This document shows, in pieces, positions 31,708 to 50,341 of a DNA stretch of 51,620 nucleotides; positions within the stretch are counted from its first letter, which is position 1; every line of letters begins with the position of its first letter. The DNA lies in NCBI GenBank assembly GCA_012523605.1, contig JAAYTY010000144.1, positions 1 to 51,620 of the forward strand. The letters are read 5' to 3'. Made by a program: the position numbers and the translations under genes. The notes under the pieces are model-generated. The model saw only the letters and a list, made by a program, of their open reading frames with translations, had not been told where the DNA came from and made no database searches. The DNA comes from Candidatus Fermentibacterota bacterium (GTDB taxonomy: Bacteria > Fermentibacterota > Fermentibacteria > Fermentibacterales > Fermentibacteraceae).

Positions 31708-33357
31708 ATGACTCTCCAGGATAAGCTCGCGAAACTGCTCGCCGGGCGCCCGGGTGTTTTCGAGAACTCTCCGAGGCCCGTGCTCATAAGGGAATGCATG
31801 GCGAACCGCGAGGTGATGGCCGCCGCCTGCGGCGCGCTGGCGATTTGGACCAGGCCCGAGTCGACCGGGCGAAGCCCGAGCGACACCCTCATGGTGAAGA
31901 GGCCGGCCAGCGAGAAGAACATCGACTGGACCAGCGCCAACTGCCTCCCGGTGACCGAGGAGACCTTCGACATGGTTGCGGAGGACACTCTCGGCGTCTT
32001 CGGGAGGTCGAAGAAGCTCTATGTGACGGACCGCCTGGTGGGCGCCGACCCGAAGTGCACCCTTCATGTGAGAACCGTTTCGGACAGGGCGATCACCGCC
32101 CTGTTCACCTGCAACATGTTCAGGCCGTTCGACGAGAAGCTGCTGGCCCGGAGCTGCTTCCGCGACAGGCCCTTCACGCTGCTCGTCACCCCCGACAGCA
32201 AGCTCGACCCCGCCCGATACGATGGCCGTCTCCGCGTGGACCCCGCGCTGGGCCATACCTCCACGATGATGATCGGCATGGACTTCGACAGGTTCCTGGG
32301 ACTGGTCCACGGCTCGGCCTACTGCGGCAGCGTGAAGAAGCTCATCTTCACTGTGATGAACTACCTCCTGCCGTTGGAGGGGATTCTCCCCCTCCACTGC
32401 AGCGCCAACGAGGGCAGGGACGGCAGGTCGGCCCTGCTGCTGGGCCTCTCCGGCACCGGGAAGACCACCCTCTCCGCCGATCCCTCCAGGGCTCTCCTGG
32501 GCGACGACGAACATTCCTGGAGCGACGAGTGCATCGCCAACTTCGAATACGGATGCTATGCGAAGCTCATCAACCTGAAACCCGAGAAGGAGCCCGACAT
32601 ATACAGGGCATGCTTCCACGAGGCGCCTCCCGAGGAGCACGGCGCGATAATAGAAAACGCCATGATCTACCCCGACGGCACGTTCGACCTCGCCGACCAG
32701 AGGCTGACGGAGAACTCGCGCGGGTCCTATCCGCTCAGCTTCCTGTCCAACATCAAGGAACCGCCCATCGCCGGACACCCGTCTGCGATCCTCTTCCTGA
32801 CCGCCGATGCCAACGGCGTCCTTCCGCCGATCGCCAGGCTCACGAGGGAGCAGGCGATGTTCTGGTTCGTCATGGGGTACACCAGCAAGCTCGCCGGGAC
32901 CGAGCGCGGGATCGTCGAGCCGAAGAGCACCTTCTCCCGCTTCTTCGGCGGACCGTTCATGCCGCTCCTGCCGGACGTGTATGCGGGCATGCTGGGCGAG
33001 AAGCTGGACAGGCACGGGTCGAAGGTGTACCTGGTGAACACCGGCTGGAGCGGAGGCCCCTACGGCGTGGGCAGGCGCATGGACATCTCGCTTACGAGAG
33101 CCATGGTGGCCGCCGCCCTCGAGGGAGGGCTGGACGGAGCGGAGTTCGATCCCGCCCCCTGTTTCAAGGTCCTTGTACCGCGAAGCTGCCCCGGCGTGCC
33201 CGACCCGTCCGTGCTCTCGCCGGCGAACACCTGGGCGGACAAATCGGCCTACCGCGAGAAGGCGAAGAAGCTCGCAGCCGAGTTCGCCTCCTTCTTCGAG
33301 AAGAACTATGCGGGCAGGCTCGATCCCTCGGTTGCCGCGGAGTGTCCGGGGAGATAG
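31708..33357 (+). CDS. pckA: Phosphoenolpyruvate carboxykinase (ATP)
   Basis: TGRSP.D, Y.G.VKK, LHCSAN, GLSGTGKTTLSADP, GDDEH.W, GCYAK, TENSR.SYP, GYTSKLAGTERG and LVNTGWSGG. Confidence 0.95.
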   Translation: MTLQDKLAKLLAGRPGVFENSPRPVLIRECMANREVMAAACGALAIWTRPESTGRSPSDTLMVKRPASEKNIDWTSANCLPVTEETFDMVAEDTLGVFGRSKKLYVTDRLVGADPKCTLHVRTVSDRAITALFTCNMFRPFDEKLLARSCFRDRPFTLLVTPDSKLDPARYDGRLRVDPALGHTSTMMIGMDFDRFLGLVHGSAYCGSVKKLIFTVMNYLLPLEGILPLHCSANEGRDGRSALLLGLSGTGKTTLSADPSRALLGDDEHSWSDECIANFEYGCYAKLINLKPEKEPDIYRACFHEAPPEEHGAIIENAMIYPDGTFDLADQRLTENSRGSYPLSFLSNIKEPPIAGHPSAILFLTADANGVLPPIARLTREQAMFWFVMGYTSKLAGTERGIVEPKSTFSRFFGGPFMPLLPDVYAGMLGEKLDRHGSKVYLVNTGWSGGPYGVGRRMDISLTRAMVAAALEGGLDGAEFDPAPCFKVLVPRSCPGVPDPSVLSPANTWADKSAYREKAKKLAAEFASFFEKNYAGRLDPSVAAECPGR

Positions 33358-33493
33358 CCGCCCGCCTGCCGCGTCAGCGACCCGCCGAAGCCTCCCGGCG
33401 GCTGGAGGTGCCGCGAACGGCTCCTCATCCGTGCGAGCCCCGGCGGACCGCCGCCGCGGCGCAGCATCGGCGCATGTCCGCCCGACCCCGCTC

Positions 33494-34024
33494 CTACCGC
33501 TCCTTTACGGGCAGACCGAGGTGCGACCAGTCGCCCGGAGTTGGCGCCGGGATGTCGCCCGACACGAGCAGGCGCAGAGTCCCGACGAGCAGGGAAATGC
33601 TCCTGTGGACAGGCGGGTTCAGGAGGCCGGGGAGGTCATCGGGCTGGTGGAAGCCGGTTCTCCCGGTGTCGAGCTCCTCTTCCGGTCCTGCCAGGGCTCT
33701 CGCATCCCACCACGTGAGGAAGCCCGCCGGTACGGGAGCCCCTTGCTCCCGCCCGGCCATGAGAAGGAGAAAGTCGCACTTCGCACGGGCCATGGACTCG
33801 AAGGTCCATCCGGTGCGGGGCACGGGGCCCACGGCAAGCCGCCGGCCGTCGTGGAGGACGATCCCGTACCTGCCCTCCGTGCCCGGAGGGGAACCGCTCG
33901 TCCAGCAGGCGAAGCCGGAGGAAGCCAGCCAGCGCAGAGCCGCCCTTTCGAGGGCTGCCGGATCGTACCCCGCCCGACCTGTCCGGGCCCCTGTTCCGTC
34001 ATCTCCCGGCCTGTTCCTGCTCAT
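33494..34024 (-). CDS. Hypothetical protein (176 aa)
   Basis: The most protein-like ORF in the ~750-bp gap between pckA and gcvT. No recognisable motif. Confidence 0.45.
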   Translation of the reverse strand: MSRNRPGDDGTGARTGRAGYDPAALERAALRWLASSGFACWTSGSPPGTEGRYGIVLHDGRRLAVGPVPRTGWTFESMARAKCDFLLLMAGREQGAPVPAGFLTWWDARALAGPEEELDTGRTGFHQPDDLPGLLNPPVHRSISLLVGTLRLLVSGDIPAPTPGDWSHLGLPVKER

Positions 34025-34110
34025 TGCCGGGAGTCTCCTGCAGACGTAGATTCGCTGGTGATTTTACCTTCTCCGGCGGGGCCGCCCCGCCTTTCCAGGG
34101 AGAGAGAACG

Positions 34111-35630: not shown

Positions 35631-36977
<1,347 letters not shown>

Positions 36978-36978
36978 G

Positions 36979-38439
36979 ATGGAAGGGACCATCTTCTCGA
37001 AGAGCTGCTGCGGACGCCGGGGAATGGACCTCCCAGCGCCGGAGGTTCCCGTGCTCGATCCCTCCGCGGTCCTGGGTCCCGGCAGGCTCCGTTCCGCGCC
37101 GGTCGGCCTCCCCCAGGTCAGCGAGCCTCAGGCCGTGAGGCACTTCGTCAACCTCGGGGTCAAGAACTACCACGTGGACAAAGGCATCTATCCGCTGGGC
37201 TCTTGCACGATGAAATACAATCCCAAGCTCAACGAGGACCTCGCGAGGCACCCTGCCTTCGCCGGCCTGCACCCGCTTGCTCCGGCCCGGGCCGCCCAGG
37301 GCGCGCTGGAGCTGATGCACGAGCTGGGGACCTACCTGTGCGAGATCACGGGATTCCGCGGAGTGACCCTCCAGCCTGCCGCCGGAGCCCAGGGTGAGTT
37401 CACGGGACTCCTCCTCATCAGGAAGTGGCACGACGCGAGGGGAGATGCCGGAAGGGTCGAGGTGCTGATGCCCGATTCGGCCCACGGCACCAACCCCGCA
37501 TCCAGCACTCTGGCGGGCATGCGGGTGGTCAGCGTGAAATCCGACTCCCGAGGCGAAGTGGATCTCGACGACCTGAAGGCGAAGGCCGGCCCCCTGACCG
37601 CGGCTCTCATGCTGACGAACCCCAACACTCTCGGGATCTTCGAGTCGCGCATCGGAGAGATCACGAGGATCGTCCACGAGGCCGGCGGCCTCTGCTACAT
37701 GGACGGAGCGAACCTCAACGCCCTCCTGGGGATCGCGAGGCCGGGGGACATGGGATTCGACGTCTGCCACGTGAACCTGCACAAGACCTTCTCCACCCCC
37801 CACGGCGGAGGCGGGCCCGGCGCGGGGCCCGTGGCCTGCGCCGAGCCTCTGGCCAGGTTCCTGCCGAATCCGGTCGTCGTGCGCGCCGGGGACGGCTCCT
37901 ATGCGTTCGAGCCCGGCGGGAGGGAGTCCTTCGGAAGGCTGCTGGCCTTCCACGGCAACTTCGGGGTTCTCGTCAGGGCCTGGGCGTACATCCGGACTCT
38001 CGGCGCGGCAGGCCTCCGCGAGACGGCCGAGAACGCGCTGATAAACGCCAACTACCTCAGGGCGCGGCTGAAGGGTGCCTTCGAGCTTCCCTATGACCAC
38101 GGCCCCTGCATGCACGAGTTCGTGCTGTCGGGCGAGGCGCAGGCGAAGAAAGGCGTCAGGACGCTGGACATCGCGAAGAGGCTGCTCGACTACGGTTTCC
38201 ATGCCCCCACCATCTATTTCCCCCTGATCGTTCACGAGGCGATCATGATCGAGCCCACCGAGACCGAGGGTCTCCAGTCCCTCGACGCCTTCGCGGACGC
38301 CATGCTCGCCATCGCGAGGGAGGTCGAGGAGAAGCCGCACCTCGTCACGGACGCACCGGTGAACACGCCGGTCCTTCGGCTCGACGAGGTCCGCGCCGTG
38401 AAGGAGCTGGACATAGCGGAACCGTGGGAGAGAACGTAG
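36979..38439 (+). CDS. gcvPB: Glycine dehydrogenase subunit 2
   Basis: PLGSCTMKYNP, QPAAGAQGE, SAHGTNPAS, PLP-Lys motif NLHKTFSTPHGGGGPG, and IEPTETE. Confidence 0.97.
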   Translation: MEGTIFSKSCCGRRGMDLPAPEVPVLDPSAVLGPGRLRSAPVGLPQVSEPQAVRHFVNLGVKNYHVDKGIYPLGSCTMKYNPKLNEDLARHPAFAGLHPLAPARAAQGALELMHELGTYLCEITGFRGVTLQPAAGAQGEFTGLLLIRKWHDARGDAGRVEVLMPDSAHGTNPASSTLAGMRVVSVKSDSRGEVDLDDLKAKAGPLTAALMLTNPNTLGIFESRIGEITRIVHEAGGLCYMDGANLNALLGIARPGDMGFDVCHVNLHKTFSTPHGGGGPGAGPVACAEPLARFLPNPVVVRAGDGSYAFEPGGRESFGRLLAFHGNFGVLVRAWAYIRTLGAAGLRETAENALINANYLRARLKGAFELPYDHGPCMHEFVLSGEAQAKKGVRTLDIAKRLLDYGFHAPTIYFPLIVHEAIMIEPTETEGLQSLDAFADAMLAIAREVEEKPHLVTDAPVNTPVLRLDEVRAVKELDIAEPWERT

Positions 38440-38867
38440 AAACCGGGGCGCGGTCCGTACTCGAGTGGAGGTCGCACCCTGCAGCCGAGAGGCCGCTGGC
38501 CGCCGCCCTTCTGCTCGTTATAATGCTCGCTGCCACGGGCGGGGCGGTGCTCTGGGGCGGAAGCCCGTGGTGGGGCGTCGTGGGCTTCGCGATGCTCTTC
38601 CTGGGCTTGTGGAGCTTCCTCCTGCCCGCCTGGTACCGGATGGACGGGAAGGGGGTCTCGAAGCGCACCGTCTTCGGCCTGGAGAAGCGCGAGTGGCGGG
38701 AAGTCAGGAGCTTCACGGTGGACAGGTACGGAATGCTCCTCAGTCCGTTTCCCGGACCTGCGAGGCTGGCGAAGTTCCGCGGGCTGTCCGTCCAGTTCTC
38801 GCCCTCCAACAGGGAGGAAGTCGTTGGGTTTGTCGAGGCAAGGACCGTGGGGGACCGTACCCGCTGA
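38424..38867 (+). CDS. Small two-TM membrane protein with a C-terminal soluble (PH/YcxB-like) domain
   Basis: W.SHPA, two hydrophobic helices, then FLLP.WY...R.W..VR..LLSPF..RL..FRG. Overlaps the gcvPB stop. Confidence 0.7.
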   Translation: MGENVETGARSVLEWRSHPAAERPLAAALLLVIMLAATGGAVLWGGSPWWGVVGFAMLFLGLWSFLLPAWYRMDGKGVSKRTVFGLEKREWREVRSFTVDRYGMLLSPFPGPARLAKFRGLSVQFSPSNREEVVGFVEARTVGDRTR

Positions 38868-39273
38868 CGCCGCGGAGGGCGAGTCCTACGACGATCTGAT
38901 AGGGAAGATCGCCCGTGAGATAGTCAGCCGCGAACTCACAGTTCCGGCGATCATGTTCCTCGAGTCGGTTAAGCCCCTGTCGTTCCTCGGGAACCAGCTT
39001 CTCGTGTTCCTGGATCCGGTGGTCTCCCTCGTGGTGACCTCGGGGGAATACCGGCGCTTCGTCAGGATGCTCGAGGACAGGGAGAACCTCGAAAGGCTGA
39101 TATCCGTGATAGAGGAGGAAAACGCCCTCGAAGAGGCCCGCAGGAGGGAGGAGAGGAGCAGGCGCCCCCGGCGCGGGCTTCGCGCCTTCTTCGGGCGCCG
39201 TGGAGGGCCCGCAGGGGAGCAGAAGGGAGACGGCATTGGCCGGCAAGGAGATCACCAGGATACTGGCAACTGA
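38824..39273 (+). CDS. Conserved-looking hypothetical protein
   Basis: KIA..IV.R.L.VPAIMFLES.KPL.FLGNQ...F..P core and a charged tail. GGAGG ribosome-binding site before TTG 38824. Confidence 0.7.
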   Translation: MGLSRQGPWGTVPADAAEGESYDDLIGKIAREIVSRELTVPAIMFLESVKPLSFLGNQLLVFLDPVVSLVVTSGEYRRFVRMLEDRENLERLISVIEEENALEEARRREERSRRPRRGLRAFFGRRGGPAGEQKGDGIGRQGDHQDTGN

Positions 39274-41101
39274 CTGCGGCAGCACGACGACCAAGGCCAT
39301 TCTCATCGAGAAGCGGGCCGGCGAGTACAGGCTGATCCGCCGGGGCGAGGCGCCGACGACGGTGGAGGCGCCCGCCGAGGACGTGACCAAGGGGGTGCTC
39401 AACGCCGTAGGCGAGATAGAGGACCTCGAGGGCAGGGAGTTCCTCGACGCCTCCCGCGAAGGGATAGCCGTGGGTGACGATCTCTCCAGGGGCGTGGACA
39501 TCTTCGTCTCTACCTCCTCCGCCGGGGGAGGGCTCCAGATGACCGTCGCCGGAGTGGTCAAGTCCATGACCGGCGAGAGCGCCCAGCGCGCCGCCCTCGG
39601 CGCCGGCGCGATCGTCATGGACGTCGTCGCCTCGAACGACGGCCGGCTGTTCCACGAGAAGGTCGCCGACATCAGGCGCCTCCGGCCGGACATGATCCTG
39701 CTCTCCGGCGGCATAGACGGAGGGACCATAGACCATGTCGTGGAACTGGCCGAGGTCATAAGGGCCGCCGACCCCAAGCCCAGGTTCGGGGTGGGCTACA
39801 AGCTGCCCGTCATCTACGCAGGGAACAGGGACGCCACAGGAGAGGTGGAGCACGAGCTCGGCGGGATGTCCGCCCTCAAGGTGGTCCCCAACATCCGGCC
39901 CGTCCTCGAGAGGGAGAACCTGGGCCCGGCGCGCGACACGATACACGAACTCTTCATGGAGCATGTCATGGCCCAGGCTCCGGGCTACGGCAAGCTGATG
40001 CAGTGGGCTGGCCACTGGGTTGACGGCAGGTGGGAGAACGTTCCGATCATGCCCACTCCAGGGGCCGTCGGAAAGCTGATCGAGATGGTCGCCAGGGCCG
40101 AGGGCATCCATGTCATGGGCGTGGATATCGGCGGCGCCACGACCGACGTGTTCAGCGTCTTCGACAGCCAGGGCCAGCCCGTCTTCAACCGCACCGTATC
40201 GGCCAACCTGGGGATGAGCTACAGCATTTCGAACGTCCTCGCCAGCGCAGGCATGGAGAACGTGATGCGCTGGGTTCCCTTCAGGATGGACGAGGCCGAC
40301 CTCAGAAACCGCATCCGGAACAAGATGATCAGACCCACGACCATCCCGCAGACCCTCGAGGAGCTGATCGTCGAGCAGGCTATCAGCCGGGAGGCCCTGA
40401 GACTTGCCCTGGTCCAGCACCGGGAGCTGGCCGTGGGCCTCAAGGGGGTGGCGCAGGAGCGGACCATCGGCGACGCCTTCGAGCAGACCCAGACGGGTGC
40501 GACCCTGGTGGACATGATGAAGCTCGACCTGCTGATCGGCTCGGGCGGAGTCCTGTCCCATGCTCCGAGGAGATGCCAGGCGGCGCTGATGATGATCGAC
40601 TCGTTCCTCCCCGAAGGCATCACGATGCTGGCGGTGGACTCGATCTTCATGATGCCCCAGCTCGGCGTTCTCTCGAAAGAGCTCCCGGAAGCGGCCGCCG
40701 AGGTCTTCGACAAGGACTGCCTCATCCGGCTCGGAAGCTGCGTCGCTCCTTCCGGCCAGTCGAAGGACGGCCAGACCACCGCGACCATGCAGATGGAGGC
40801 CCCCGACGGCCGGACGCGCGAGTTCAGGATCGTCTACGGCAGAATGGAGGTGATCCCCCTGGGCGTCGGCGAGAAGGCAAGGGTAACGATACGCCCGGCG
40901 AAGGGGATAGATGTCGGAGCCGGTCCCGGAAGGCAGCTCGAATCGGTGGTCGAGGGCGGAGTCGTTGGAGTCGTGCTCGACGGCAGGGGCAGGCAGCCGT
41001 TCGGCCTTCCGGCGGGAGACGCCGAGAGGATCCGCAAGCTGCAGGAGTGGGCCATGGCCATGACGGCCTACCCCGAGAAGTTCCTTTCCCTGGGGAGGTA
41101 G
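39236..41101 (+). CDS. GlmL/MutL (glutamate mutase L)-family ASKHA-fold ATPase with C-terminal extension
   Basis: Phosphate-1 motif ATDCGSTTTKA, SSAGGGL, LLSGGIDGG, MPTP.AV, phosphate-2 motif VDIGGATTDVFS, RTV..NLGM and IGSGGVLSH. TTG start at 39236 after AAGGGAG. Confidence 0.85.
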   Translation: MAGKEITRILATDCGSTTTKAILIEKRAGEYRLIRRGEAPTTVEAPAEDVTKGVLNAVGEIEDLEGREFLDASREGIAVGDDLSRGVDIFVSTSSAGGGLQMTVAGVVKSMTGESAQRAALGAGAIVMDVVASNDGRLFHEKVADIRRLRPDMILLSGGIDGGTIDHVVELAEVIRAADPKPRFGVGYKLPVIYAGNRDATGEVEHELGGMSALKVVPNIRPVLERENLGPARDTIHELFMEHVMAQAPGYGKLMQWAGHWVDGRWENVPIMPTPGAVGKLIEMVARAEGIHVMGVDIGGATTDVFSVFDSQGQPVFNRTVSANLGMSYSISNVLASAGMENVMRWVPFRMDEADLRNRIRNKMIRPTTIPQTLEELIVEQAISREALRLALVQHRELAVGLKGVAQERTIGDAFEQTQTGATLVDMMKLDLLIGSGGVLSHAPRRCQAALMMIDSFLPEGITMLAVDSIFMMPQLGVLSKELPEAAAEVFDKDCLIRLGSCVAPSGQSKDGQTTATMQMEAPDGRTREFRIVYGRMEVIPLGVGEKARVTIRPAKGIDVGAGPGRQLESVVEGGVVGVVLDGRGRQPFGLPAGDAERIRKLQEWAMAMTAYPEKFLSLGR

Positions 41102-41105
41102 GAGG

Positions 41106-42227
41106 ATGGCATTCGCTTACACACCGGGTCTCAGGGTCGCCGACGTGACGACCGTCCGCAAGGAACGCCGCCTCCCGCTCAAGGGCAGAGTCCTGGTCCG
41201 TGAGGGCGCCGACGTGGACGCCGAGACGGTGGTCGCCAGGACCGAGCTGCCCGGCAACGTGAAGATGCTCAACATAGCCAACATTCTCGGCGTGCCGCCC
41301 GACGACATCCCGGAGCTCCTCTTGAAGAAGGAGGGCGACCCGCTGTCGGAGAACGAGACGATAGCCCAGTCCAGGGGGCTGTTCGGGCTGTTCCGGAACA
41401 CCGTGAGATCACCCATCGAGGGATCCTTCGAGAGCTTCAACAAGGTCACGGGACAGGCGGTTCTCAGGGAGCCGCCGATTCCGGTGACCATCGACGCATA
41501 CGTGAAGGGGCGCGTGGTGGAAGTGATCCCCGACGAGGGCGTCGTGGTGGAGACGAGGGCCACCTTCGTACAGGGCATCTTCGGCATCGGAGGAGAGGTC
41601 AGAGGGTTCCTGAAGACGGTCGTCAAGAGCCCCGACCAGGAGCTGACATCCGATCTGATAGACGCCTCCTGCTCGGGGAGGATCCTGGTGGGAGGCTCGT
41701 TCGTTACCGTGGCCACGCTCCGGAAGGCCGTGTCGGCCGGTGTGAAGGGGATGGTCGTCGGCGGCTTCGACGACAGGGATCTGAAGGATTTCCTCGGCTA
41801 CGATCTCGGCGTCGCCATCACAGGCCACGAGAACAAGGGCATAACCCTCGTCCTGACGGAGGGGTTCGGCCGCATGAACATGGCCCGGGCCACTTTCGAC
41901 CTCCTGAGGAGCCGCGAGGGAATGCTCGCGAGCATAAACGGCGCGACACAGATCAGGGCGGGGGTGATCCGCCCGGAGGTGGTCATCCCGGTCGGCGACG
42001 AGGTACAGGGCAAACCGCCTTCGAGGGAGCAGGGGGCTCTCGTCACCGGATCGCCCGTCAGGGTCATCAGGGCGCCGTATTTCGGCAGGCTGGGCAGAGT
42101 GTCGGCGCTGCCGCCGGAGCTGCAGCAGCTCGAGACCGAGGCTCACGTGAGGGTGCTCGAAGTGGAGTTCGGGGACGGCTCCAGGGCGGTGGTGCCCAGG
42201 GCAAACGTCGAGCTCATAGAGGAATAG
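41106..42227 (+). CDS. Hypothetical soluble protein with barrel-sandwich-hybrid-like repeats and a C-terminal KOW/SH3-like motif
   Basis: G.VLV.EG..V....VVAR and KKEGD......IA...SPI.G half-motifs, VQGIFGIGGE, LTEGFG, G.TQIRAGV.RPE and G..VRVIR.PYFG..G.V. AGGAGG ribosome-binding site. Confidence 0.8.
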   Translation: MAFAYTPGLRVADVTTVRKERRLPLKGRVLVREGADVDAETVVARTELPGNVKMLNIANILGVPPDDIPELLLKKEGDPLSENETIAQSRGLFGLFRNTVRSPIEGSFESFNKVTGQAVLREPPIPVTIDAYVKGRVVEVIPDEGVVVETRATFVQGIFGIGGEVRGFLKTVVKSPDQELTSDLIDASCSGRILVGGSFVTVATLRKAVSAGVKGMVVGGFDDRDLKDFLGYDLGVAITGHENKGITLVLTEGFGRMNMARATFDLLRSREGMLASINGATQIRAGVIRPEVVIPVGDEVQGKPPSREQGALVTGSPVRVIRAPYFGRLGRVSALPPELQQLETEAHVRVLEVEFGDGSRAVVPRANVELIEE

Positions 42228-42270
42228 GTCCGGGCATGTCCTTGCCCTGCTGTCAGGTTCTATCCATGAC

Positions 42271-42292
42271 CCGGGGAGTTTCGGCTCCCCGG
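42271..42292 (+). other. Intercistronic RNA hairpin with UUCG loop
   Basis: CCGGGGAGT-TTCG-GCTCCCCGG: a 9-bp stem with one G-U pair, in the 100-bp gap inside the module. Confidence 0.6.
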
Positions 42293-42327
42293 TTCCATTC
42301 TGAGGTCCTGTCGATCGGAGGAGTGGA

Positions 42328-43542
42328 ATGAGGTTGTTCGGTCTTCTCGCGCTGGCGCTGGCCGCCGGCCCGGCGGCACAGCCGGCCGGGCCGCCCGGGA
42401 CCGGCCCGGTTGCATACGGGCAGGCCGCGGCCGACTCGATGCCTTCACCGCCCCCTGCGCCTTCGGTGACCGGTCTCGCCGCCCGCGATGTGCGCGACGA
42501 CGCCGGCGGCGCGATCGAGCTCTCGTGGGAGCTGGTTCCAGGCGTGACGGCCGACTCGCTCCTCGTGTCCCGAAGCGCCGACGGCGGGACATGGGAGACG
42601 GTCGCCTTCCTGCCCGGAGCCGAAGTGGTGTTCACGGACGAGGGGCTGGAGGACGGCGTCGAGTACTCCTACACCGTCACCTCCCTCCTGGGCGGTGCGG
42701 CATCCCAGCCGGCGGGGCCGGTTTCTGCGGTCCCCTCGGCGCAGTGGCTTCACTCGAAGCGCACCGGGATGCTCATCATCCTGGTCCTGCTCTCCGGCGT
42801 GATCTTCTGGTTCATCGACCAGGGCAGGAAGGGCCGAAAGCTGTACATACGCGAGATCGCCGGGCTCTCCGCCGTGGACGACGCCGTCGGCAGGGCCACC
42901 GAGATGGGCCGGTCGGTGCTCTACATCCCCGGCATCATGGGCATGGACGACATCCAGACGATAGCCAGCATGATCATCCTGGGGCGCGTGGCCGGCAAGA
43001 CCGCCGAGTACGGCGCCGACCTTCAGGTGCCGGTCTGCAACAGCGTCGTGATGAGCGTGGGACAGGAGATCGTGAAGGAGGCGTATCTCGCTGCCGGAAG
43101 GCCCGACTCCTACCGTCGCGACAATGTCTTCTACCTCACCGACGACCAGTTCGGATACGCGGCGGGCGTGGACGGGATAATGGTCCGCCAGCGGCCCGCA
43201 GCCATATTCATGCTGGGCACCTTCTACGCCGAGAGCCTCATCCTGGCCGAGACCGGCAAGAGCGTGGGCGCGATCCAGATCGCCGGCACGGCCATGCCCA
43301 GCCAGCTTCCGTTCTTCATCGCCGCCTGCGACTACACCCTCATAGGCGAGGAGCTCTTCGCCGCCAGCGCCTACCTTTCCCGCGAGCCCAAGCTCCTCGG
43401 GAGCCTGAAGGGCCAGGATGCAGCCAAGCTGATTATCATGCTGGTGATCGTTGTCGGCGTGCTCGCCGCCTCGATAGGCACATGGTGGGCGCCGGCGGCC
43501 TCCCTGGCGGACTTCCTCCGCCGCATCCTTCACGTCGAGTAG
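42328..43542 (+). CDS. Signal peptide + fibronectin type III domain + TM + DUF6754-like domain
   Basis: FN3 motifs L.A.D...D.GG.I.LSW and F.D.GL.DG..Y.Y.V; a TM helix; IR.IAGL.A.D.AVGRATEMG, IQIAGT...QLPFF and LIGEELFAASAYL; C-terminal TM. The DUF number is from memory. Confidence 0.75.
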   Translation: MRLFGLLALALAAGPAAQPAGPPGTGPVAYGQAAADSMPSPPPAPSVTGLAARDVRDDAGGAIELSWELVPGVTADSLLVSRSADGGTWETVAFLPGAEVVFTDEGLEDGVEYSYTVTSLLGGAASQPAGPVSAVPSAQWLHSKRTGMLIILVLLSGVIFWFIDQGRKGRKLYIREIAGLSAVDDAVGRATEMGRSVLYIPGIMGMDDIQTIASMIILGRVAGKTAEYGADLQVPVCNSVVMSVGQEIVKEAYLAAGRPDSYRRDNVFYLTDDQFGYAAGVDGIMVRQRPAAIFMLGTFYAESLILAETGKSVGAIQIAGTAMPSQLPFFIAACDYTLIGEELFAASAYLSREPKLLGSLKGQDAAKLIIMLVIVVGVLAASIGTWWAPAASLADFLRRILHVE

Positions 43543-43553
43543 GGGGTGGCGGA

Positions 43554-44213
43554 ATGAGGACGATCCTTCCTCTCGCGATTACGTTCGTAACGGGAATGAT
43601 CATGGTACTCAACTTTTTCGTGCCCCACCGCCCCTTCAACTCCATGGGCAACTCGCTGTCCGACTGGTACATGATCGTGGCCTCCGCCGCCATCTTCCTC
43701 GGCGCGATGAACCTCCTCCAGGTCCACTTCGCGAGGATCCGCCACAGAGCCAGGAACTGGCAGTACAGCCCGGTGGCGATAGGCGGGTTCCTCCTCATGC
43801 TGACGGCCGGGCTGGTCACCGGTGTGGAGGAGGGCCGCGCATTCGACTTCATGTTCCAGAACATGGTGGTCCCGATGGGAGCGACGATGTTCAGCCTCCT
43901 CGCCTTCTTCGTCGCGTCAGCCGCCTTCAGGGCGTTCAGATCGTCCAACTGGAGGGCCACCCTCCTCCTGGTCTCGGCGTTCGTCGTCATGCTGGGCAGG
44001 GTTCCGATCGGCGACCTCCTGTGGAGGCTCGTGCCCGGAGCGGCTTCGGGTGCGCATCCGAGCCTGGTGACGGAGATCGCCGAGTGGATAATGCAGGTCC
44101 CCAACATGGCCGGACAGCGAGCTGTGATGATAGGTGCCGCGCTGGGCGTCGTCGCCACCTCGCTCCGCATGATCTTCGGCGTCGAGCGCAGCTACCTCGG
44201 AGGTGCGGACTGA
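43554..44213 (+). CDS. Polytopic membrane protein (~6 TM), unknown function
   Basis: Almost entirely hydrophobic, with TMFSLLAFFVASAAFRAFR, MLGRVPIG, W.M.VPN.AG.R and G.ERSYLG. Confidence 0.85.
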   Translation: MRTILPLAITFVTGMIMVLNFFVPHRPFNSMGNSLSDWYMIVASAAIFLGAMNLLQVHFARIRHRARNWQYSPVAIGGFLLMLTAGLVTGVEEGRAFDFMFQNMVVPMGATMFSLLAFFVASAAFRAFRSSNWRATLLLVSAFVVMLGRVPIGDLLWRLVPGAASGAHPSLVTEIAEWIMQVPNMAGQRAVMIGAALGVVATSLRMIFGVERSYLGGAD

Positions 44214-45073
44214 TGGGTGGCCTCCTCGAAAAGCTCGACAGGATAGACAGGCGGTTCATCTATCTCCTCATGGCTCTGTCGGTCCTCGTTCCGCTCGCAT
44301 TCAGGCTCGAGATGCCGATCCCGGTCAGCCCCGGCCCCAGCATGGACCTCTACGAAGCGGTCGACGCGCTTCCGCCGGGCTCGGTCGTGATAGTGAGCTA
44401 CGACTACGATCCCTCCACGATGCCAGAACTCCAGCCCATGGCCGTGGCGCTGACCCGGCACCTCATGTCGAGAGGCGTGAAGATCATCGCCACGGCTCTC
44501 TGGCCGCAGGGCGCGAGCCTCGCGCAGAACGCGCTCACGCAGATCTCCGACAGCCTCGGGCTCTCGGAGTACGAGGACTGGGTGAACCTGGGCTACACCG
44601 TGGGAGGGGCCGTTTCGGTCGTCAGGATGGGCAGCTCGATAAGCGCCGTCTTTCCCAGGGACAGGGTCGGGGTGCCCTACGACTCGATCCCTGTGCTCGA
44701 AGGCGTCGGCAGGCTGGCCGACATCTCGATGGTCATCGCGCTGTCCGCCGGCGATCCCGGCATCCACGCCTGGGTGATGGTGGCCCAGGGCAGGTTCGGC
44801 ATCCCCGTAGGAGGGGGCTGTACCGCCGTCAGCGCGCCGGAGTTCTACACCTATCTCGGCTCGGGCCAGCTGGTCGGCCTGCTCGGCGGGCTGAAGGGGG
44901 CCGCCGACTACGAGACCCTTCTCAAAAGGGACAATCCGGGAGCCCCCGGCGGCACCGCGACCCCCGGAATGGCCGCGCAGTCCATCTCGCATCTCGTCAT
45001 CATGGGATTCATAGTGATAGGCAACATCGCCTTCATCGCTGGCAGGAAGAGGAAGAGGGGGGGTGCGAAGTGA
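44213..45073 (+). CDS. Membrane-anchored protein (TM - alpha/beta domain - TM), unknown function
   Basis: DRRFIYL plus TM, DYDP....EL.PM, WVNLGY, GG.TAVSAP, SGQL.GLLGG.KGAA.YE, and a C-terminal TM with an RKRKR tail. TGATG coupling to the upstream gene. Confidence 0.85.
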   Translation: MGGLLEKLDRIDRRFIYLLMALSVLVPLAFRLEMPIPVSPGPSMDLYEAVDALPPGSVVIVSYDYDPSTMPELQPMAVALTRHLMSRGVKIIATALWPQGASLAQNALTQISDSLGLSEYEDWVNLGYTVGGAVSVVRMGSSISAVFPRDRVGVPYDSIPVLEGVGRLADISMVIALSAGDPGIHAWVMVAQGRFGIPVGGGCTAVSAPEFYTYLGSGQLVGLLGGLKGAADYETLLKRDNPGAPGGTATPGMAAQSISHLVIMGFIVIGNIAFIAGRKRKRGGAK

Positions 45074-45726
45074 ACTGGGAGATCCTCGGCATCTGGCTGG
45101 GGGCCCTGCTGACCCTGAGCCTCTATAGTTTTCTTTACAGGGACAACCCCTTCTACAAGTTCACCGAGCATCTCTTCGTGGGGATGAGCGCGGGATACTG
45201 GGTCATCTACAACATCTTCAACGTACTGAGGCCGAACCTCTGGGACAGGCTGACCGGCGCCGGGGAGGCCGGTCCCGACCTCTGGATGATCATCCCCGCC
45301 GTGTTCGGCGTGTTCATGATCCTCCGCCTGGTGCCGAAGGTCGCCAGCCTGTCGCGGTTCGCCCTCGCGATGATAGTCGGCACGGGCGCGGGACTGAGCC
45401 TCGTCACGACGCTCCAGACGAACGCCCTCGCCCAGGTGGAGGGGACCATACTGTCGGTGACCGGCGGCGGGCTGTCGGAGTTCCTCGACAGCTTCCTCCT
45501 GGTCGCGGGGGTGGTCTGCGGGCTGGTGTACTTCTTCTTCTCGAAAGCCCACAGGGGGGTGATCGGAGGCGCCGCCGGCATCGGAATCACGATCCTCATG
45601 ATCGCCTTCGGCGCCAGCTTCGGCTACACCGTGATGGCGCGAATCAGCCTGCTGATCGGTCAGGCGCAGTTCCTGCTGTTCAGATGGCTGCCCACGATAC
45701 CCCTCTTCAGGGGCCTTGCCGGATAG
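45070..45726 (+). CDS. Polytopic membrane protein (~6 TM), unknown function
   Basis: LTL.LYSFLY.DNP.YK..EH..VG..AGY, L.YFFFS and M.AFGA.FGYTVM.RISLL.G. GTGA overlap with the upstream gene. Confidence 0.85.
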   Translation: MNWEILGIWLGALLTLSLYSFLYRDNPFYKFTEHLFVGMSAGYWVIYNIFNVLRPNLWDRLTGAGEAGPDLWMIIPAVFGVFMILRLVPKVASLSRFALAMIVGTGAGLSLVTTLQTNALAQVEGTILSVTGGGLSEFLDSFLLVAGVVCGLVYFFFSKAHRGVIGGAAGIGITILMIAFGASFGYTVMARISLLIGQAQFLLFRWLPTIPLFRGLAG

Positions 45727-45749: not shown

Positions 45750-45778
45750 TTGACACCGATGGCCTTCCCGGCTATTCT
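45750..45778 (+). promoter_or_regulatory. Sigma70-type promoter TTGACA-17-TATTCT for the TBDR operon
   Basis: Consensus -35, canonical 17-bp spacer and a 4/6 match at -10. Confidence 0.75.
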
Positions 45779-45961
45779 CACTTCGGGCAGTGTGCCCGTG
45801 ATGCGGCGTTCCGCCCCGTTGGGGCGGCTTTGTATGGGTTTGCTCGGCAGTGTTCGCTTCTTGATAGAGGTTGCGCCCCCCGGGAAAGGGAGGTGGACCA
45901 GCTCCGGAGGGCGGAGGCTTTCGACTGAGGTCCCCGATTCTTGGGAAAGGAGAAAAAGACC

Positions 45962-48661
45962 GTGCTGAGTAGGGCTACAGTGCTCTCTCTCGCCCTGGTC
46001 CTGCTGGTCGCGTTCGGCGCGATGGCCGGCACCACGGGCAAGATCGCAGGTCGGGTCACCGACCGGAACGGTCAGCCCCTGGTCGGCGCCGCGGTGCTCA
46101 TAGTGGGCACCCCCTACGGCGCCATGACCGACGCCAACGGCGAGTACTTCATCATCAACCTCGAGCCCGGCGAGTACACGCTGAGGGCGCAGATGGTGGG
46201 AATGTCCATGAAGGAGGCTCAGGGCGTGGAGGTCCTCGTGGACATGACCACGCGCATGGACTTCACACTCGACCCCGAGGCCGTGGGCAACACGGTTTTC
46301 GTGGTCACGGGCGACAGGGCGATGATCCTCCGCGACCTCACGCAGTCCGTCCACGTCGTCAGCCGTGACGAGATCAAGACCATGCCGGTGGCCGGCATCC
46401 AGGACGTCGTCAACCGCCAGGCCGGCTCCGTGGACCGCGGCGGGCTCCACATGCGCGGCGGCAGAACCGGCGAGGTGGTCTATCTCGTCGACGGCGTCGC
46501 CCAGGTGGATCCAACCAGCAACGTGTTCAACAGCGACATCCCCATGTCCGCGGTGGCCGAGACGTCGGTCATCTCCGGCGGCTTCGGCGCGGAGTACGGC
46601 AACGCCCAGTCCGGAGTCGTGAACATCGTCACCCGCGAGGGCGGAAACGAGTACACCGGCTCCGCAGAGTTCAGTGGAAACGACTGGCAGGCCCTGGGTC
46701 TGGCCGACGGCTGGACATTCGTCACCGACTGGGACGACGCCGGCCCGTTCTCCGAGGCCAGGCTCAACGGCGAGGCCTCCATCGGCGGCCCCGAGCCCCT
46801 CACGAGCTTCCTTCTGCCCGCCATCGGCATCGACATCCCCGGCGACATGCGCCTCTTCGCCTCCGGCGAATGGCTCGAGACCGGCGGCGGCGAGGATGGG
46901 CGCTACGAGTATCAGTTCAACAACTGGCGCACCCAGTGGAGCACCAACGTCAAGCTGACCTACCGCCCCAACAACAGGACGAAGATCAACCTCACCTCCT
47001 ACATCCTCGACAGGGTGGCGGGCTTCGGCATCTGGGAGTACTACCGCTGCGAGGAGCCGTACGTAGATCCGGCGACCGGCGACACCATGCCCGGCACCGA
47101 CGTCCGCTACATCCTCCCCACGAGGTTCTGGCTCAACACCAGCAACGGCATCGGCCTCACCCAGACCCTCAGCGACGCGACCTTCATGGAGTTCAAGGTC
47201 AACCAGTACATGGCCCGCTTCCGCTACAAGATCCGCGACCCGGAAGGCGGCTGGCTGGGCGAGGACTGGGACGAGGACGACTGGCTGGCATACCAGCCCT
47301 CCCGCGTGAACGACGAGGAGGGATATCCGCGCTCCGGCGCCAGCCGCTACGCCTGGAACGACACCCGCAGCACCATCTCCACGGCGAGGATAGACGTCAC
47401 GAGCCAGATCTCGCAGGAGCACCAGCTCAAGGCCGGCGTCGAGGGCCAGTACTACGACGTGTTCGACTACAGCGTGGACACCGCCTCCGGAGGCAACATC
47501 TACCTCAACAGGTATCACGCCTTCCCGAACAGCGGCTCCGCGTACATCCAGGACAAGATGGAGTACAGGGGCATGATCGTGAACGCGGGTCTCAGGTTCG
47601 ACTACTTCGACGCCAACTTCGACAACTACCCGGCCGATCCGTCGAACCCGGTGACCCCGGGCACGACGCCCGACGACCCCGACCACATAGTCAACCCGAT
47701 CTCCGTTCCGATCAAGTACCACCTCAGCCCGCGCGTGGGCTTCTCCCACCCCATCACCGAGCGTGACGTCCTCCACTTCACCTACGGCCACTACTTCCAG
47801 ATGCCGATGTTCGACAGGCTCTACTACGGATCTTCGTACGACCTGTCCGGCGCCTTCCCGCTGATCGGCAACGTGGACCTCGAGCCCGAGGAGACCATCT
47901 CCTACGAGGTGGGAGTGAAGCACCAGTTCGACGACGTGACCCTCATGGACGTGACGGGCTTCTACAAGGACATCACGGGCCTGATCGACACCGAGCGCAA
48001 CTTCTATTCGGCCGTTGACTTCTACGATCACTACATCAACGGCGACTACGGCAGCGTGCGCGGCGCCGAGCTCTCGATCATGAGGCGCCAGAGCGGCTTC
48101 TGGTCGTTCAGCGGCAACTACAGCTACCAGGTCGCCAAGGGCAAGTCGTCGGGCGCCACCCAGAACTACAGCTACCTATGGTCAGGCTGGGTCATCCCGA
48201 AGCGCGAGTCCTACCTCGACTGGGATCAGAGGCACACCGCCAACGTGAATGTGGACTTCCGCATTCCCAGGGGCGAGGGTCCGAGGCTCGGCGCATTCCC
48301 GATCCTCGAGGGCTTCGGCGTTTCCACCCAGTGGAGCTGGGGCTCGGGCTTCCCGTACACGCAGGACAACCAGGGTACCGCCTCCCCCGAGATCAACGGA
48401 AGGCGCATGCCCTGGACTATGAATACGGACATGAAGATCAACCGCACGATATGGGCGGGCCCGCTGACCTTCGACGTGTACTGCTGGATCATGAACGTCT
48501 TCAACCGGCAGAACATCAGCAGCATCGCCGATATCGCCTGGTATGACGCCGATCAGGACGGCGACGGCGAGCCCGACCACGATCCCGAGGGCTCGACCCA
48601 CAATCCGTACGTGTATTCGCGTCCGCGCATGATCCGCTTCGGCATGAGCGTGGAGTGGTAG
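45962..48661 (+). CDS. TonB-dependent receptor with N-terminal carboxypeptidase-regulatory-like domain
   Basis: Signal peptide; GKIAGRVTD..G.PL.GA.V; plug motifs H.RGGR..E..Y.VDG and SGGF.AEYGNA.SGVVN; SPR.GFS.P; L.PE.T.SYE.G; C-terminal RFGMSVEW. AAGGAG ribosome-binding site before GTG. Confidence 0.93.
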   Translation: MLSRATVLSLALVLLVAFGAMAGTTGKIAGRVTDRNGQPLVGAAVLIVGTPYGAMTDANGEYFIINLEPGEYTLRAQMVGMSMKEAQGVEVLVDMTTRMDFTLDPEAVGNTVFVVTGDRAMILRDLTQSVHVVSRDEIKTMPVAGIQDVVNRQAGSVDRGGLHMRGGRTGEVVYLVDGVAQVDPTSNVFNSDIPMSAVAETSVISGGFGAEYGNAQSGVVNIVTREGGNEYTGSAEFSGNDWQALGLADGWTFVTDWDDAGPFSEARLNGEASIGGPEPLTSFLLPAIGIDIPGDMRLFASGEWLETGGGEDGRYEYQFNNWRTQWSTNVKLTYRPNNRTKINLTSYILDRVAGFGIWEYYRCEEPYVDPATGDTMPGTDVRYILPTRFWLNTSNGIGLTQTLSDATFMEFKVNQYMARFRYKIRDPEGGWLGEDWDEDDWLAYQPSRVNDEEGYPRSGASRYAWNDTRSTISTARIDVTSQISQEHQLKAGVEGQYYDVFDYSVDTASGGNIYLNRYHAFPNSGSAYIQDKMEYRGMIVNAGLRFDYFDANFDNYPADPSNPVTPGTTPDDPDHIVNPISVPIKYHLSPRVGFSHPITERDVLHFTYGHYFQMPMFDRLYYGSSYDLSGAFPLIGNVDLEPEETISYEVGVKHQFDDVTLMDVTGFYKDITGLIDTERNFYSAVDFYDHYINGDYGSVRGAELSIMRRQSGFWSFSGNYSYQVAKGKSSGATQNYSYLWSGWVIPKRESYLDWDQRHTANVNVDFRIPRGEGPRLGAFPILEGFGVSTQWSWGSGFPYTQDNQGTASPEINGRRMPWTMNTDMKINRTIWAGPLTFDVYCWIMNVFNRQNISSIADIAWYDADQDGDGEPDHDPEGSTHNPYVYSRPRMIRFGMSVEW

Positions 48662-48688
48662 AAGGCGCAGGCTGAACAAACGAAGGCG

Positions 48689-48715
48689 GGCGGTTCCCCT
48701 TCCGGGGGGACCGCC
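48689..48715 (+). terminator. Intercistronic stem-loop between TBDR and exbB
   Basis: GGCGGTTCCCC-TTCCG-GGGGGACCGCC: an 11-bp stem with one G-U pair and no U-tract. Confidence 0.55.
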
Positions 48716-48748
48716 TCCCGACAGCGACCGACAAGGAGAAGTCCTTAG

Positions 48749-49582
48749 ATGCGTAACATCCTGATTGCAGTCCTGTTCATGGCTGCGCTCTCCTGGGGGC
48801 AGGCCGGCGGGACACCAGCGGCCGCGACGCCTGACTCGACTGCCGTACAGCCCGAAGACACCACCGCACAGGTGACCGAACCCGTCGCTCCTCCGGTGGA
48901 AGACGCCGCCACCCCTCCCGAAGGTCAGGACATCGAGCGCCCGCAGAGCGCCCGCATGGATATCAAGGACCTGTTCATAGCGGGCGGGATCTTCATGTGG
49001 CCGCTGCTCCTCTCCGCGATCCTCGGCGTGGCCTTCTCGGTGGAGCGCTTCATCACCCTCGGGAAGTGCAAGATCAACCAGGGTCTCTTCCTCGAACAGC
49101 TCGGGGGCTACATCCGCAAGGGCGACGCCCGCGGAGCCGAGGACCTCTGCGACCGCACGCGCGGCCCGGTGGCCTCCATCATGCGCGCCGGCCTCCTGCG
49201 CCGTGACAAGGGCCTCGACGCCGTCGAGAAGGGCATAGAGACCGCGGCCAGCGTCGAGGTGAACTTCCTCGAGCGGGGCCTCATCGTGCTCGCCTCGGTA
49301 GTCGTCATCGCCCCCATGCTGGGCTTCCTCGGAACGGTTTCGGGCATGATCAACGCCTTCGGCGCGATAGCCGCCGCAAAGAACGTCGAGGCCAGCCTTG
49401 TCGCGAGCGGCATACAGGAGGCGCTGATCACCACGGCCACCGGCCTGATGATCGCCATCCCGATCCAGATGTGCTACAACTGGTTCCTAGCTCAGATCGG
49501 CCGTTACGTGGTCGAGATGGAGGAAGCCAGCGGCTTCCTGGTGGACACCCTGACCGACATGGAGCAGCTCAAGAAGCTGTAA
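48749..49582 (+). CDS. exbB: MotA/TolQ/ExbB proton channel with a signal-like sequence and Pro/Thr-rich N-terminal extension
   Basis: GG..MWPLL, ER, LERGL..L, APMLGFLGTV.GMI.AF and GI.EAL.TTA.GL.IAIP. Confidence 0.93.
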   Translation: MRNILIAVLFMAALSWGQAGGTPAAATPDSTAVQPEDTTAQVTEPVAPPVEDAATPPEGQDIERPQSARMDIKDLFIAGGIFMWPLLLSAILGVAFSVERFITLGKCKINQGLFLEQLGGYIRKGDARGAEDLCDRTRGPVASIMRAGLLRRDKGLDAVEKGIETAASVEVNFLERGLIVLASVVVIAPMLGFLGTVSGMINAFGAIAAAKNVEASLVASGIQEALITTATGLMIAIPIQMCYNWFLAQIGRYVVEMEEASGFLVDTLTDMEQLKKL

Positions 49583-49591
49583 GGAGTTCGC

Positions 49592-50341
49592 ATGCGGCTG
49601 ATAAAGAAATCTAGCCCGAACGCGGATATTCCTGAGGCTTCAATGGCCGACATCGGGTTCCTCCTGATGATCTTCTTCCTCGTCACGACCACGTTCGAGG
49701 TCCAGAAGGGCATCTCCTACAGGCTTCCCAAGAAGCCCGACGAGCAGACGCAGGAGGTGGTCGTCGACGAGACCAACCGTCTCATGATGACCATCAAGCA
49801 GTGGGGGATGAACGAATACGTGGCCCTGATCGACCAGGCTCCTCCAGGAGGGCCCCTGCAGAGGGCCCGCGCGGGCGAGGACGTCAGCCTGGAGGACTCG
49901 GCCCTGGTGTCGGGCATCCGCGCGCTCGCATCCGAGCGCGCCGAAACGCTCGCGGCGGCGCGCAGCAGGCTGCTCACGAACCTGCTGATCGCGAAGGACC
50001 TCTCGGCCGGTTCCTACACCAGCCTCGAAGTGGCCATTCAGGGAGAGAACCTTGTTCCGCAGGTGCGCCCGGGGATCATGAGGTCGCACCTCGGATCGAG
50101 CATCGTCGTCGACGACGACCCCTTGTTCGGGCAGGTCGCCTTCGGCGACACTCTCGTGCTCTCCGACGCCGTGCAGGGCGAGATAGCGAGCGTGGTGAGG
50201 GAGAGCGAACTGGTCGTGATCCTGAAGTTCTTCCCCGACTGCGATTACGACGGCATGGTGCAGGCCCTGGACATGCTGCGCCGGAACGGCGTCAGCCGCA
50301 CGGGCATCACGATCCAGGAGAGGACGGGTGGCACGGTATGA
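49592..50341 (+). CDS. exbD: ExbD/TolR-family protein with a large internal insertion
   Basis: IP.ASMADI.FLL.IFFLVTTTF TM motif and C-terminal VILK...Y..MV..LD.L...GV. At 249 aa it is much longer than a typical ExbD. Confidence 0.82.
   Translation: MRLIKKSSPNADIPEASMADIGFLLMIFFLVTTTFEVQKGISYRLPKKPDEQTQEVVVDETNRLMMTIKQWGMNEYVALIDQAPPGGPLQRARAGEDVSLEDSALVSGIRALASERAETLAAARSRLLTNLLIAKDLSAGSYTSLEVAIQGENLVPQVRPGIMRSHLGSSIVVDDDPLFGQVAFGDTLVLSDAVQGEIASVVRESELVVILKFFPDCDYDGMVQALDMLRRNGVSRTGITIQERTGGTV

Follow-up and report, generated by a model that had tools for sequence, protein, structure and literature searches.

The contig JAAYTY010000144.1 of a Candidatus Fermentibacterota bacterium (assembly GCA_012523605.1), analysed here over its 51,620 nucleotides (nt) and referred to as the window, carries a run of eight genes, g1 to g8 (Table 1), of which g2 to g8 make up a conserved two-module system that appears, as judged by its sequences, to match no described one. 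The existence of this conserved system is established. We tentatively interpret the locus as encoding a membrane transporter or translocator that is driven by ATP, modular in build and served by one shared ASKHA energiser, the likeliest of the readings weighed here, which we regard as possible and which falls short of probable. The first module would be cytoplasmic and consist of the ATPase g3 tightly coupled to the soluble protein g4, usually together with the small protein g2; the second would be a membrane complex of g5, g6, g7 and g8 with approximately 16 transmembrane (TM) segments. A search of titles and abstract openings found no published work on the system, on DUF6754 (a domain of g5) or on PF13941 (the Pfam MutL family, to which g3 belongs), and no part has a solved relative, the FN3 domain of g5 apart.

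The genome from which the window derives (G000) is 95% complete. Families were assigned with the curated cut-offs of Pfam and NCBIfam, transporter families being followed down to E ≤ 0.1, and synteny was surveyed across 80 loci centred on g4, some of them on short stretches. Labels beginning with G, L, P and C denote genomes, loci, proteins or protein clusters, and contigs; as the search tool itself warns, match counts per genome are not copy numbers.

Across the 80 loci, g4 is accompanied by g3 in 38, by g5 in 27 and by all of g5–g8 in 22, and it stands alone in 41. The membrane genes are intact and in the same order everywhere examined, with g6 always between g5 and g7, and the block lies 3' of g4 in most loci and 5' of g2 in three (L036, L068 and L092). 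Thirteen Fermentibacteria loci repeat the order of the window from gcvPA to g8, and the same order is present in G159, a complete genome of the same family. Four loci at which g4 is a standalone gene (L038, L040, L064 and L069) come from genomes in each of which MutL has exactly one long gene elsewhere and DUF6754 one or two. The Poribacteria, Hydrothermus and WOR-3 genomes retain all of g3, g4 and g5–g8, at three separate loci among unrelated genes, the isolated blocks being intact in six out of six. DUF6754 is present in all 151 sampled genomes of the Ignavibacteria-type phylum and MutL in 41 out of 41; at least 19 of these 41 have DUF6754 within 5 kb of MutL, in divergent or co-directional orientation, among the 150 of 729 DUF6754 matches listed.

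The phylum to which L092 belongs has the system in a patchy distribution. Among 61 of its genomes, a strong MutL match, g4 and DUF6754 are all present in 32, DUF6754 only in one (G221, 1.7 Mb) and none of the three in 28, among them G231 with a marginal MutL match over 53 positions; N-terminal ASKHA matches below the threshold, which many genomes show in other proteins, were disregarded. Thus, g3 co-occurs with g4 in 32 of 32 genomes and with DUF6754 in 32 of 33. An independent paralogous pairing is also evident, in that a fused MutL-g4-like protein of 916 amino acids (aa) is encoded directly 3' of g5'-g6'-g7'-g8' in both L134 and L135. Taken at the level of gene content, these observations demonstrate that g3-g4 and g5–g8 are inherited together. 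A preliminary description of this DNA had tied the ATPase to these membrane families and had looked to synteny across genomes for support; as an evolutionary coupling this is borne out, with adjacency persisting in several phyla despite changes of order and orientation.

The ATPase g3 matches PF13941 at E = 7.8e-122 over residues 9–495 of 621, and a C-terminal extension of approximately 125 aa follows the part covered by the family model. It contains the strings DCGSTTTK, DIGGATTD and GSGG, read directly from g3, which we take to be the ASKHA phosphate-1, phosphate-2 and adenosine motifs. All three patterns are kept in each of the 116 full-length homologues among the 120 best matches, so the motifs are as intact as first described, and the family match together with the three nucleotide-binding motifs places g3 among the MutL/ASKHA proteins. 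Database annotations call its homologues just 'glutamate mutase L' or 'hypothetical'.

Its partner g4 belongs to a large group without names. At least 8000 homologues are present in a collection at 90% identity, nearly all of them 370–376 aa long, and 992 representative clusters are found at E ≤ 1e-30 in a library at 50% identity. The g4 of the window is 56–73% identical to those of loci from Fermentibacteria, Hydrothermota, WOR-3, Ignavibacteria, Latescibacterota, Poribacteria, Edwardsbacteria, Cloacimonadota, Eisenbacteria, Zixiibacteriota, TA06 and Stahlbacteria. In many relatives the two proteins are a single chain: 46 clusters of at least 950 aa (median 997 aa), in the range P0241–P0290 and among 130 longer g4 relatives found, join PF13941 to a full-length g4 at 43–53% identity, and residue-by-residue inspection of P0241 shows residues 7–600 to be g3 at 57% identity and the remainder to be g4. 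Because they are fused in these 46 clusters, g3 and g4 work as one unit, so far as sequence can demonstrate it.

A second, more distant class of fused MutL and g4-like proteins (P0291–P0360) has lengths of approximately 830–1060 aa and is 24–34% identical to g4, with HTH_3, zinc-ribbon or NQRA-type Pfam matches in some. One of these, P0317, is matched at E ≤ 1e-20 in 35 out of 35 sampled genomes of a sister family in the phylum of the window, in most of them over its full length and beside split g3 and g4 genes. We also note that at four of six loci of the distant class (L131–L136) the fused gene adjoins an aromatic amino acid lyase gene and/or a gene for a Por-secretion-tail protein, and not a membrane block.

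Two further candidate fusions were rejected. An open frame of about 1000–1039 aa suggested a g3-g4 fusion in close relatives of the window, although direct translation of G159, the closest complete relative, reveals a TAG between the two genes; there (L137:10580-10620, corresponding to window 41080-41120) g3 and g4 share a reading frame, split only by the TAG and one codon. In the window they lie in different frames and are separated by a 4-nt spacer, in the arrangement TAG-GAGG-ATG. An apparent g4-g5 fusion (P0257, 707 aa) is a lone cluster with an internal signal-like segment and a shortened DUF6754, and is probably a read-through or an assembly artefact.

An AlphaFold2 model of g4 (predicted local distance difference test, pLDDT, 84) gave no full-length match when searched against the PDB with Foldseek, and its matches are at the level of domains. 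In the N-terminal region, a barrel-sandwich hybrid domain superposes in part (model residues ~49–123) on the N-terminal domains of RnfC (Z 7.8 over 65 residues) and NqrA (Z 7.7 over 64 residues). A swivelling beta/beta/alpha domain matches Enzyme I (Z 9.4, root-mean-square deviation, rmsd, 2.7 over 105 residues), RraA (Z 8.9), rifampin phosphotransferase (Z 8.6) and aconitase X (Z 8.3), and the C-terminal part is a KOW/SH3-like barrel (NusG KOW, Z 8.7). Some g4 homologues carry PF13375 or PF05896. The likeness to Rnf and Nqr extends to gene order, with a soluble subunit encoded before membrane subunits, but it concerns a single domain of about 65 residues at Z 7.7–7.8, a range that the tool calls common, and our system has neither Fe-S nor flavin motifs, no match to the Rnf-Nqr family in g5–g8 and no redox partner.

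In the membrane module, g5 matches PF20539 (DUF6754) at E = 1.2e-121 over residues 137–385. From its N-terminus it presents a signal-like segment, an FN3 domain, a TM segment, the DUF6754 domain of approximately 200 aa and a second TM segment. The FN3 assignment is supported by a profile match and by fold (Z 13.6, rmsd 1.6 over 91 residues; model residues 40–136), and the FN3-TM-DUF6754 architecture initially proposed for this protein is thus correct. The model of g5 is otherwise poor (pLDDT 67.5, with residues 279–340 below 40), and FN3 matches took up the fold search made with it. Judging by the charges that flank the hydrophobic segments, the DUF6754 core of g5 is probably cytoplasmic, whereas its FN3 domain and the central domain of g7 probably lie in the periplasm. 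An invariant motif, SFLYxDNPxYKFxEH, is present in g8. No sequence relatives were found in the PDB for g5 (FN3 apart), g6, g7 or g8; in the ESM Atlas g7 matched unnamed 'hypothetical' clusters and g8 had no usable named match. Profile-profile tests and BLASTP found g5 and g7, and likewise g6 and g8, to be unrelated, giving no sign of internal duplication. None of the eight proteins matched an ABC, ECF, MFS or TRAP family in Pfam or NCBIfam, and the preliminary description, which had recognised no transporter motif in the membrane proteins, agrees with these searches and with the PDB comparison.

Membrane blocks outnumber the ATPase. Among the 41 Ignavibacteria-type genomes, 40 have one MutL match over the cut-off and the remaining one has two, versus two to six DUF6754 matches, mostly five. 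In the genome of the window g3 is the sole MutL gene, and a second block, g5'-g8', is 32–57% identical to the first and split over contig ends at C172:6947-7591 (+) and C38:19723-22317 (-) (L107 and L106), without a second g1–g4. The Ignavibacteria-type genome G004 has four blocks, two of them in tandem directly 3' of g3-g4. In a further phylum the block is intact at six of six loci (L138–L143), and g5 is 800–920 aa long with a BamB-like (PQQ_2) beta-propeller of approximately 550–650 aa replacing the FN3 domain. Across blocks, the periplasmic head of g5 is variable, being FN3, absent or a BamB-like beta-propeller. At L139 and L143, g8 is followed by two more genes, an additional g7-like one and a g2-like one. 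A comparison of four paralogous blocks from a single genome puts conservation highest in the DUF6754 part (mean 52%) and lowest in g7 (39%), a pattern that fits a shared cytoplasmic partner combined with diversified periplasmic parts.

Docking, energy coupling, transport and its direction are the parts of the model that we infer. The g3-g4 unit would dock on the cytoplasmic face of the g5–g8 complex, most likely at the DUF6754 domain, and ATP binding and hydrolysis in g3 would produce a domain movement. Relayed by g4 to the membrane subunits, this movement would take a substrate across the inner membrane or out of it. DUF6754 would face the cytoplasm in this arrangement, with FN3 of g5 and the central domain of g7 on the periplasmic side. 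One g3-g4 pair would serve several paralogous g5–g8 complexes per cell, comparable to ECF-type or MsiK-type ABC importers. The analogy to ABC and ECF importers is functional: in both, one energising unit is shared among several membrane modules, our system having one ATPase unit per genome against two to six paralogous modules, with the cytoplasm-facing part conserved and the periplasmic parts diverged, whereas the ATPase here has an actin-like fold and there is no ABC ATPase or Walker-type nucleotide-binding domain and no match to an ABC, ECF, MFS or TRAP permease. A complex prediction of g5 (residues 140–404) and g6 with g4 as partner gave a score of 0.23 against a mark of 0.32; it was run without controls and we count it neither way. 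It is doubtful, albeit possible, that the system represents a new class of primary-active machine, with an actin-fold (ASKHA) motor and not an ABC, P-type, F/V-type or AAA+ one, in which one g3-g4 docks on DUF6754 and serves up to about six paralogous 16-TM g5–g8 complexes per cell, and which is present in every sampled genome of some phyla.

Several observations weigh against the transporter interpretation. The term 'transporter' derives from architecture alone, since there is no Pfam or NCBIfam transporter match and no chain with a solved relative except for FN3. The isolated g5–g8 blocks adjoin unrelated housekeeping genes (aroK/aroB, EF-G, PHO4/PhoU, lspA and an aminotransferase gene), which offer no clue to a substrate, and the alternative heads of g5 (FN3, absent or BamB-like) are of a kind met more typically in the protein-protein scaffolds of envelope machines than in importers of small molecules. 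We know of no ASKHA ATPase that has been demonstrated to energise transport. A role for g4 as a phosphohistidine or biotinyl carrier was rejected, the candidate residues not being conserved: the four commonest residues among 33 rows are H 19, N 7, S 5 and F 1 in the column of H241, and K 18, Q 10, R 2 and H 1 in that of K53. Finally, the genomes within one surveyed phylum are related, such that the co-occurrence figures are descriptive and overstate independence.

A different view of the same two modules is that g5–g8 form a trans-envelope scaffold for lipid, lipoprotein, cell-wall or outer-membrane biogenesis, with g3-g4 as its ATP-dependent remodelling or chaperone factor, in the manner of the reactivases of B12 enzymes. 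We consider this unlikely, albeit with a respectable chance. The FN3 or beta-propeller head of g5 would suit such a scaffold, as would the housekeeping contexts, in which an amidase and a DD-carboxypeptidase surround one block and lspA follows another. The universal presence of DUF6754 and MutL in the Ignavibacteria-type genomes and the high identity of g4 across phyla also accord with it, as does the swivelling domain of g4 with its likeness to Enzyme I and RraA. The large subunit of diol dehydratase reactivase combines a swivelling domain with an ASKHA ATPase, and a comparison with the DdrAB and GdrAB reactivases of B12-dependent diol and glycerol dehydratases suggests both elements in common, the swivelling-type domain here residing in g4, with ATP-driven remodelling of a partner as a plausible shared principle. 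In our system, however, no B12 enzyme (dehydratase or mutase) is adjacent, the proposed partner is a membrane complex, and the swivelling domain lies on a separate or C-terminally fused protein together with barrel-sandwich and KOW-like domains. Among the 50 rows shown for the g4 fold search there is no reactivase structure. As many as about six paralogous blocks per genome would be unusual for a core biogenesis machine, and the blocks lack a consistent neighbourhood of envelope genes.

It is distinctly unlikely that the modules are an enzyme and its dedicated carrier, uncoupled from one another, with g3-g4 a soluble ATP-dependent enzyme of the hydantoinase/oxoprolinase branch and g5–g8 ion-coupled secondary transporters for its substrate or product. 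Weak Hydantoinase_A and Hydant_A_N matches are found in g3, many of its homologues carry PF01968, and pairs of enzyme and transporter genes likewise co-occur and cluster. The presence of gcvPB, encoding subunit 2 of the glycine cleavage P-protein, directly 5' of the module in nine of 23 g3-bearing loci outside Fermentibacteria could point to an amino-acid pathway. Nonetheless, no catalytic residue set is identifiable, the Poribacteria, Hydrothermus and WOR-3 genomes retain g3, g4 and g5–g8 at three separate loci, and the strongest conservation in DUF6754 fits a shared protein partner better than it fits different substrates.

The family membership of g3 raises the further explanation that it is a true GlmL/MutL accessory or reactivating factor acting in trans on a B12 mutase encoded elsewhere, with its membrane neighbours incidental. 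Besides PF13941, this has in its favour one methylmalonyl-CoA mutase gene in the genome of the window, unlinked and on another contig, and 13 matches to B12-binding domains. However, g3 falls below all three NCBIfam cut-offs of the GlmL type, with 221.6 versus 475 bits for GlmL (NF040745), 209 versus 600 bits for Or-4 (NF040744) and 157 versus 204 for TIGR01319. Glutamate mutase (PF06368) scored over the cut-off neither in the genome of the window nor in any of five other carriers, in a search of unproven sensitivity that matched the family only weakly in one control genome, and methylmalonyl-CoA mutase (PF01642) was not found in two of the five other carriers, one of them a complete 5.2-Mb chromosome. 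PF09043, checked for ornithine/lysine aminomutase, was not found in the genome of the window, and the same search matched in no control genome. Besides the long form, G203, G230 and G255 have short-form MutL genes with open frames of 459–491 aa, and where the system is patchy g3 follows g4 and DUF6754, as described above. With PF06368 not matched over the cut-off in six genomes, PF01642 not found in two of five and the short forms present beside the long, we rate the g3 clade as not a mutase accessory factor, and an action in trans is very improbable. The statement made at the outset, that the operon contains no mutase or B12-binding subunit, is borne out by the family search of the eight proteins, with the correction that the genome does have the unlinked methylmalonyl-CoA mutase gene and the B12-binding-domain matches. 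Strict tracking of this GlmL clade with B12 mutases, named at the outset as a refutation, is not what these searches for glutamate and methylmalonyl-CoA mutase show.

Compared with GlmL and Or-4, g3 thus shares the PF13941 family and the ASKHA nucleotide-binding motifs, but it is about 160 aa longer and has a C-terminal extension, is never found here beside glmS or glmE (no glmE was found in the six carrier genomes), and is instead inherited along with DUF6754 membrane blocks and joined to g4, by fusion or by coupling. To our knowledge, the biochemical role of GlmL itself has not been established. We note that the sole methylmalonyl-CoA mutase match in the genome of the window (G000:C169:14350-15888, - strand) contains one in-frame TAG, which may reflect a disrupted gene, a misassembly or a pair of genes.

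That the two modules have no functional link and are adjacent through inherited gene order has next to no likelihood, for although g4 stands without another module gene in 41 of the 80 loci, some of them short, adjacency persists while order and orientation change, paralogous modules pair with one another and the three families come and go together among the 61 genomes of the patchy phylum.

The eight genes of the window are all on the + strand and tightly packed between 38424 and 45726, just as initially reported: gcvPB and g1 overlap by 16 nt, g1/g2 and g2/g3 also overlap, g5 and g6 are 11 nt apart, g6 and g7 overlap by 1 nt and g7 and g8 by 4 nt, and the 100 nt between g4 and g5 are the only real gap. 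An alternative GTG start at 39200 would extend g3 to 633 aa. The genes are real, but the original grouping of all eight as one unit is too broad, as the core consists of g2-g3-g4 plus g5–g8, and a g1 homologue is found in only 19 of the 80 loci, in Fermentibacteria and in loci titled Eisenbacteria and Zixiibacteriota. A g2 gene lies 5' of g3 in 30 of the 80; an alignment of 18 sequences gives its conserved core as PAIxFLESxKPLSFxGSQ...EDRENxE, and the true start codon of g2 is uncertain. In G004 an ORF (open reading frame) of 136 aa (L110:7433-7843) sits between g3 and g4 and has a weak, sub-cut-off match to 8xMP (octameric membrane protein); it was rejected as a relocated g2, to which it has no similarity.

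No Pfam or NCBIfam family scored above the cut-off for g1, g2, g4, g6, g7 or g8. PADLOC models of anti-phage defence matched none of the eight proteins at E ≤ 0.01, and an Rfam search of the window for riboswitches or other RNAs gave no matches. For sequencing runs guessed to be RNA, only small shares (0.05–0.06) were seen. A terminator-like hairpin and a promoter-like site follow g8 (Table 1); the totals of such sites in the region are not above shuffled expectation, and their position alone is suggestive.

The module is preceded by gcvT, gcvPA and gcvPB and followed (45941-50341) by genes for a TonB-dependent receptor with a CarboxypepD_reg head, ExbB and ExbD. The preliminary description had drawn on this placement to suggest import of peptides or amino acids, and both sets of genes do adjoin the module, but they fare differently across genomes. 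The gcvPB gene recurs directly 5' of g1/g2-g3-g4 in Fermentibacteria and in the nine other loci mentioned above (L044, L047, L050, L053, L070, L071, L072, L087 and L090, with WOR-3, TA06, Eisenbacteria and Hydrothermales among their titles), an adjacency that could hint at a link to glycine metabolism. Of the 13 Fermentibacteria loci with the full gene order of the window, 12 also have the receptor in synteny, and outside that group it has only weak matches (27–35% identity) in two loci, so that its association is essentially confined to Fermentibacteria, where it lies behind the hairpin and promoter-like site. The idea of amino-acid import would have the neighbouring genes as its one source.

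Two other features of gene context were observed. At an Ignavibacteria-type locus (L108:627-10032) the block is directly 3' of genes for an ABC solute-binding protein and two permeases, in a stretch without an ATPase gene, and is flanked by genes for an N-acetylmuramoyl-L-alanine amidase and a D-Ala-D-Ala carboxypeptidase. In the window, an ORF of 751 aa directly 5' of gcvT (31794-34049, + strand) has no Pfam family at E ≤ 1e-5.

Table 1. Genes and sites of the g1–g8 region; positions are those of the window.
Feature	Position	Strand	Description
gcvPB	36976-38439	+	Glycine cleavage P-protein subunit 2; Pfam GcvP2_C (2.7e-29) and GDC-P; context gene
g1	38424-38867	+	147 aa; hydrophobic segments 20-38 and 51-69; soluble C-terminal part; accessory
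g2	38824-39273	+	149 aa; one hydrophobic segment; K/R/E-rich tail
g3	39236-41101	+	621 aa, TTG start; ASKHA-fold ATPase, Pfam MutL; no hydrophobic segment
g4	41106-42227	+	373 aa; no hydrophobic segment; soluble partner of g3
g5	42328-43542	+	404 aa; FN3-TM-DUF6754; TM segments 146-164 and 365-383
g6	43554-44213	+	219 aa; polytopic, 6 hydrophobic segments; no family
g7	44213-45073	+	286 aa; one TM segment at each end; central domain of ~220 aa; no family
g8	45070-45726	+	218 aa; polytopic, 5-6 hydrophobic segments; no family
Promoter-like site	45750-45778		Between g8 and the TonB-dependent receptor gene
Terminator-like hairpin	45811-45827	+	GC-rich; downstream of g8

If the transporter interpretation is correct, an ATPase fold not previously known to be linked to transport would drive a membrane process in these bacteria. 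The carriers include Fermentibacteria, Ignavibacteria-type bacteria, WOR-3, Hydrothermota, Poribacteria, Zixibacteria and Eisenbacteria. Digesters, sediments and sponges harbour many of these lineages in abundance, and the family, with its 992 g4 clusters, is large and universal in some phyla, and is not known in model organisms. At the least, a widespread misannotation as 'glutamate mutase L' is corrected, and g2–g8 are defined as a system with clear partners that can be tested.

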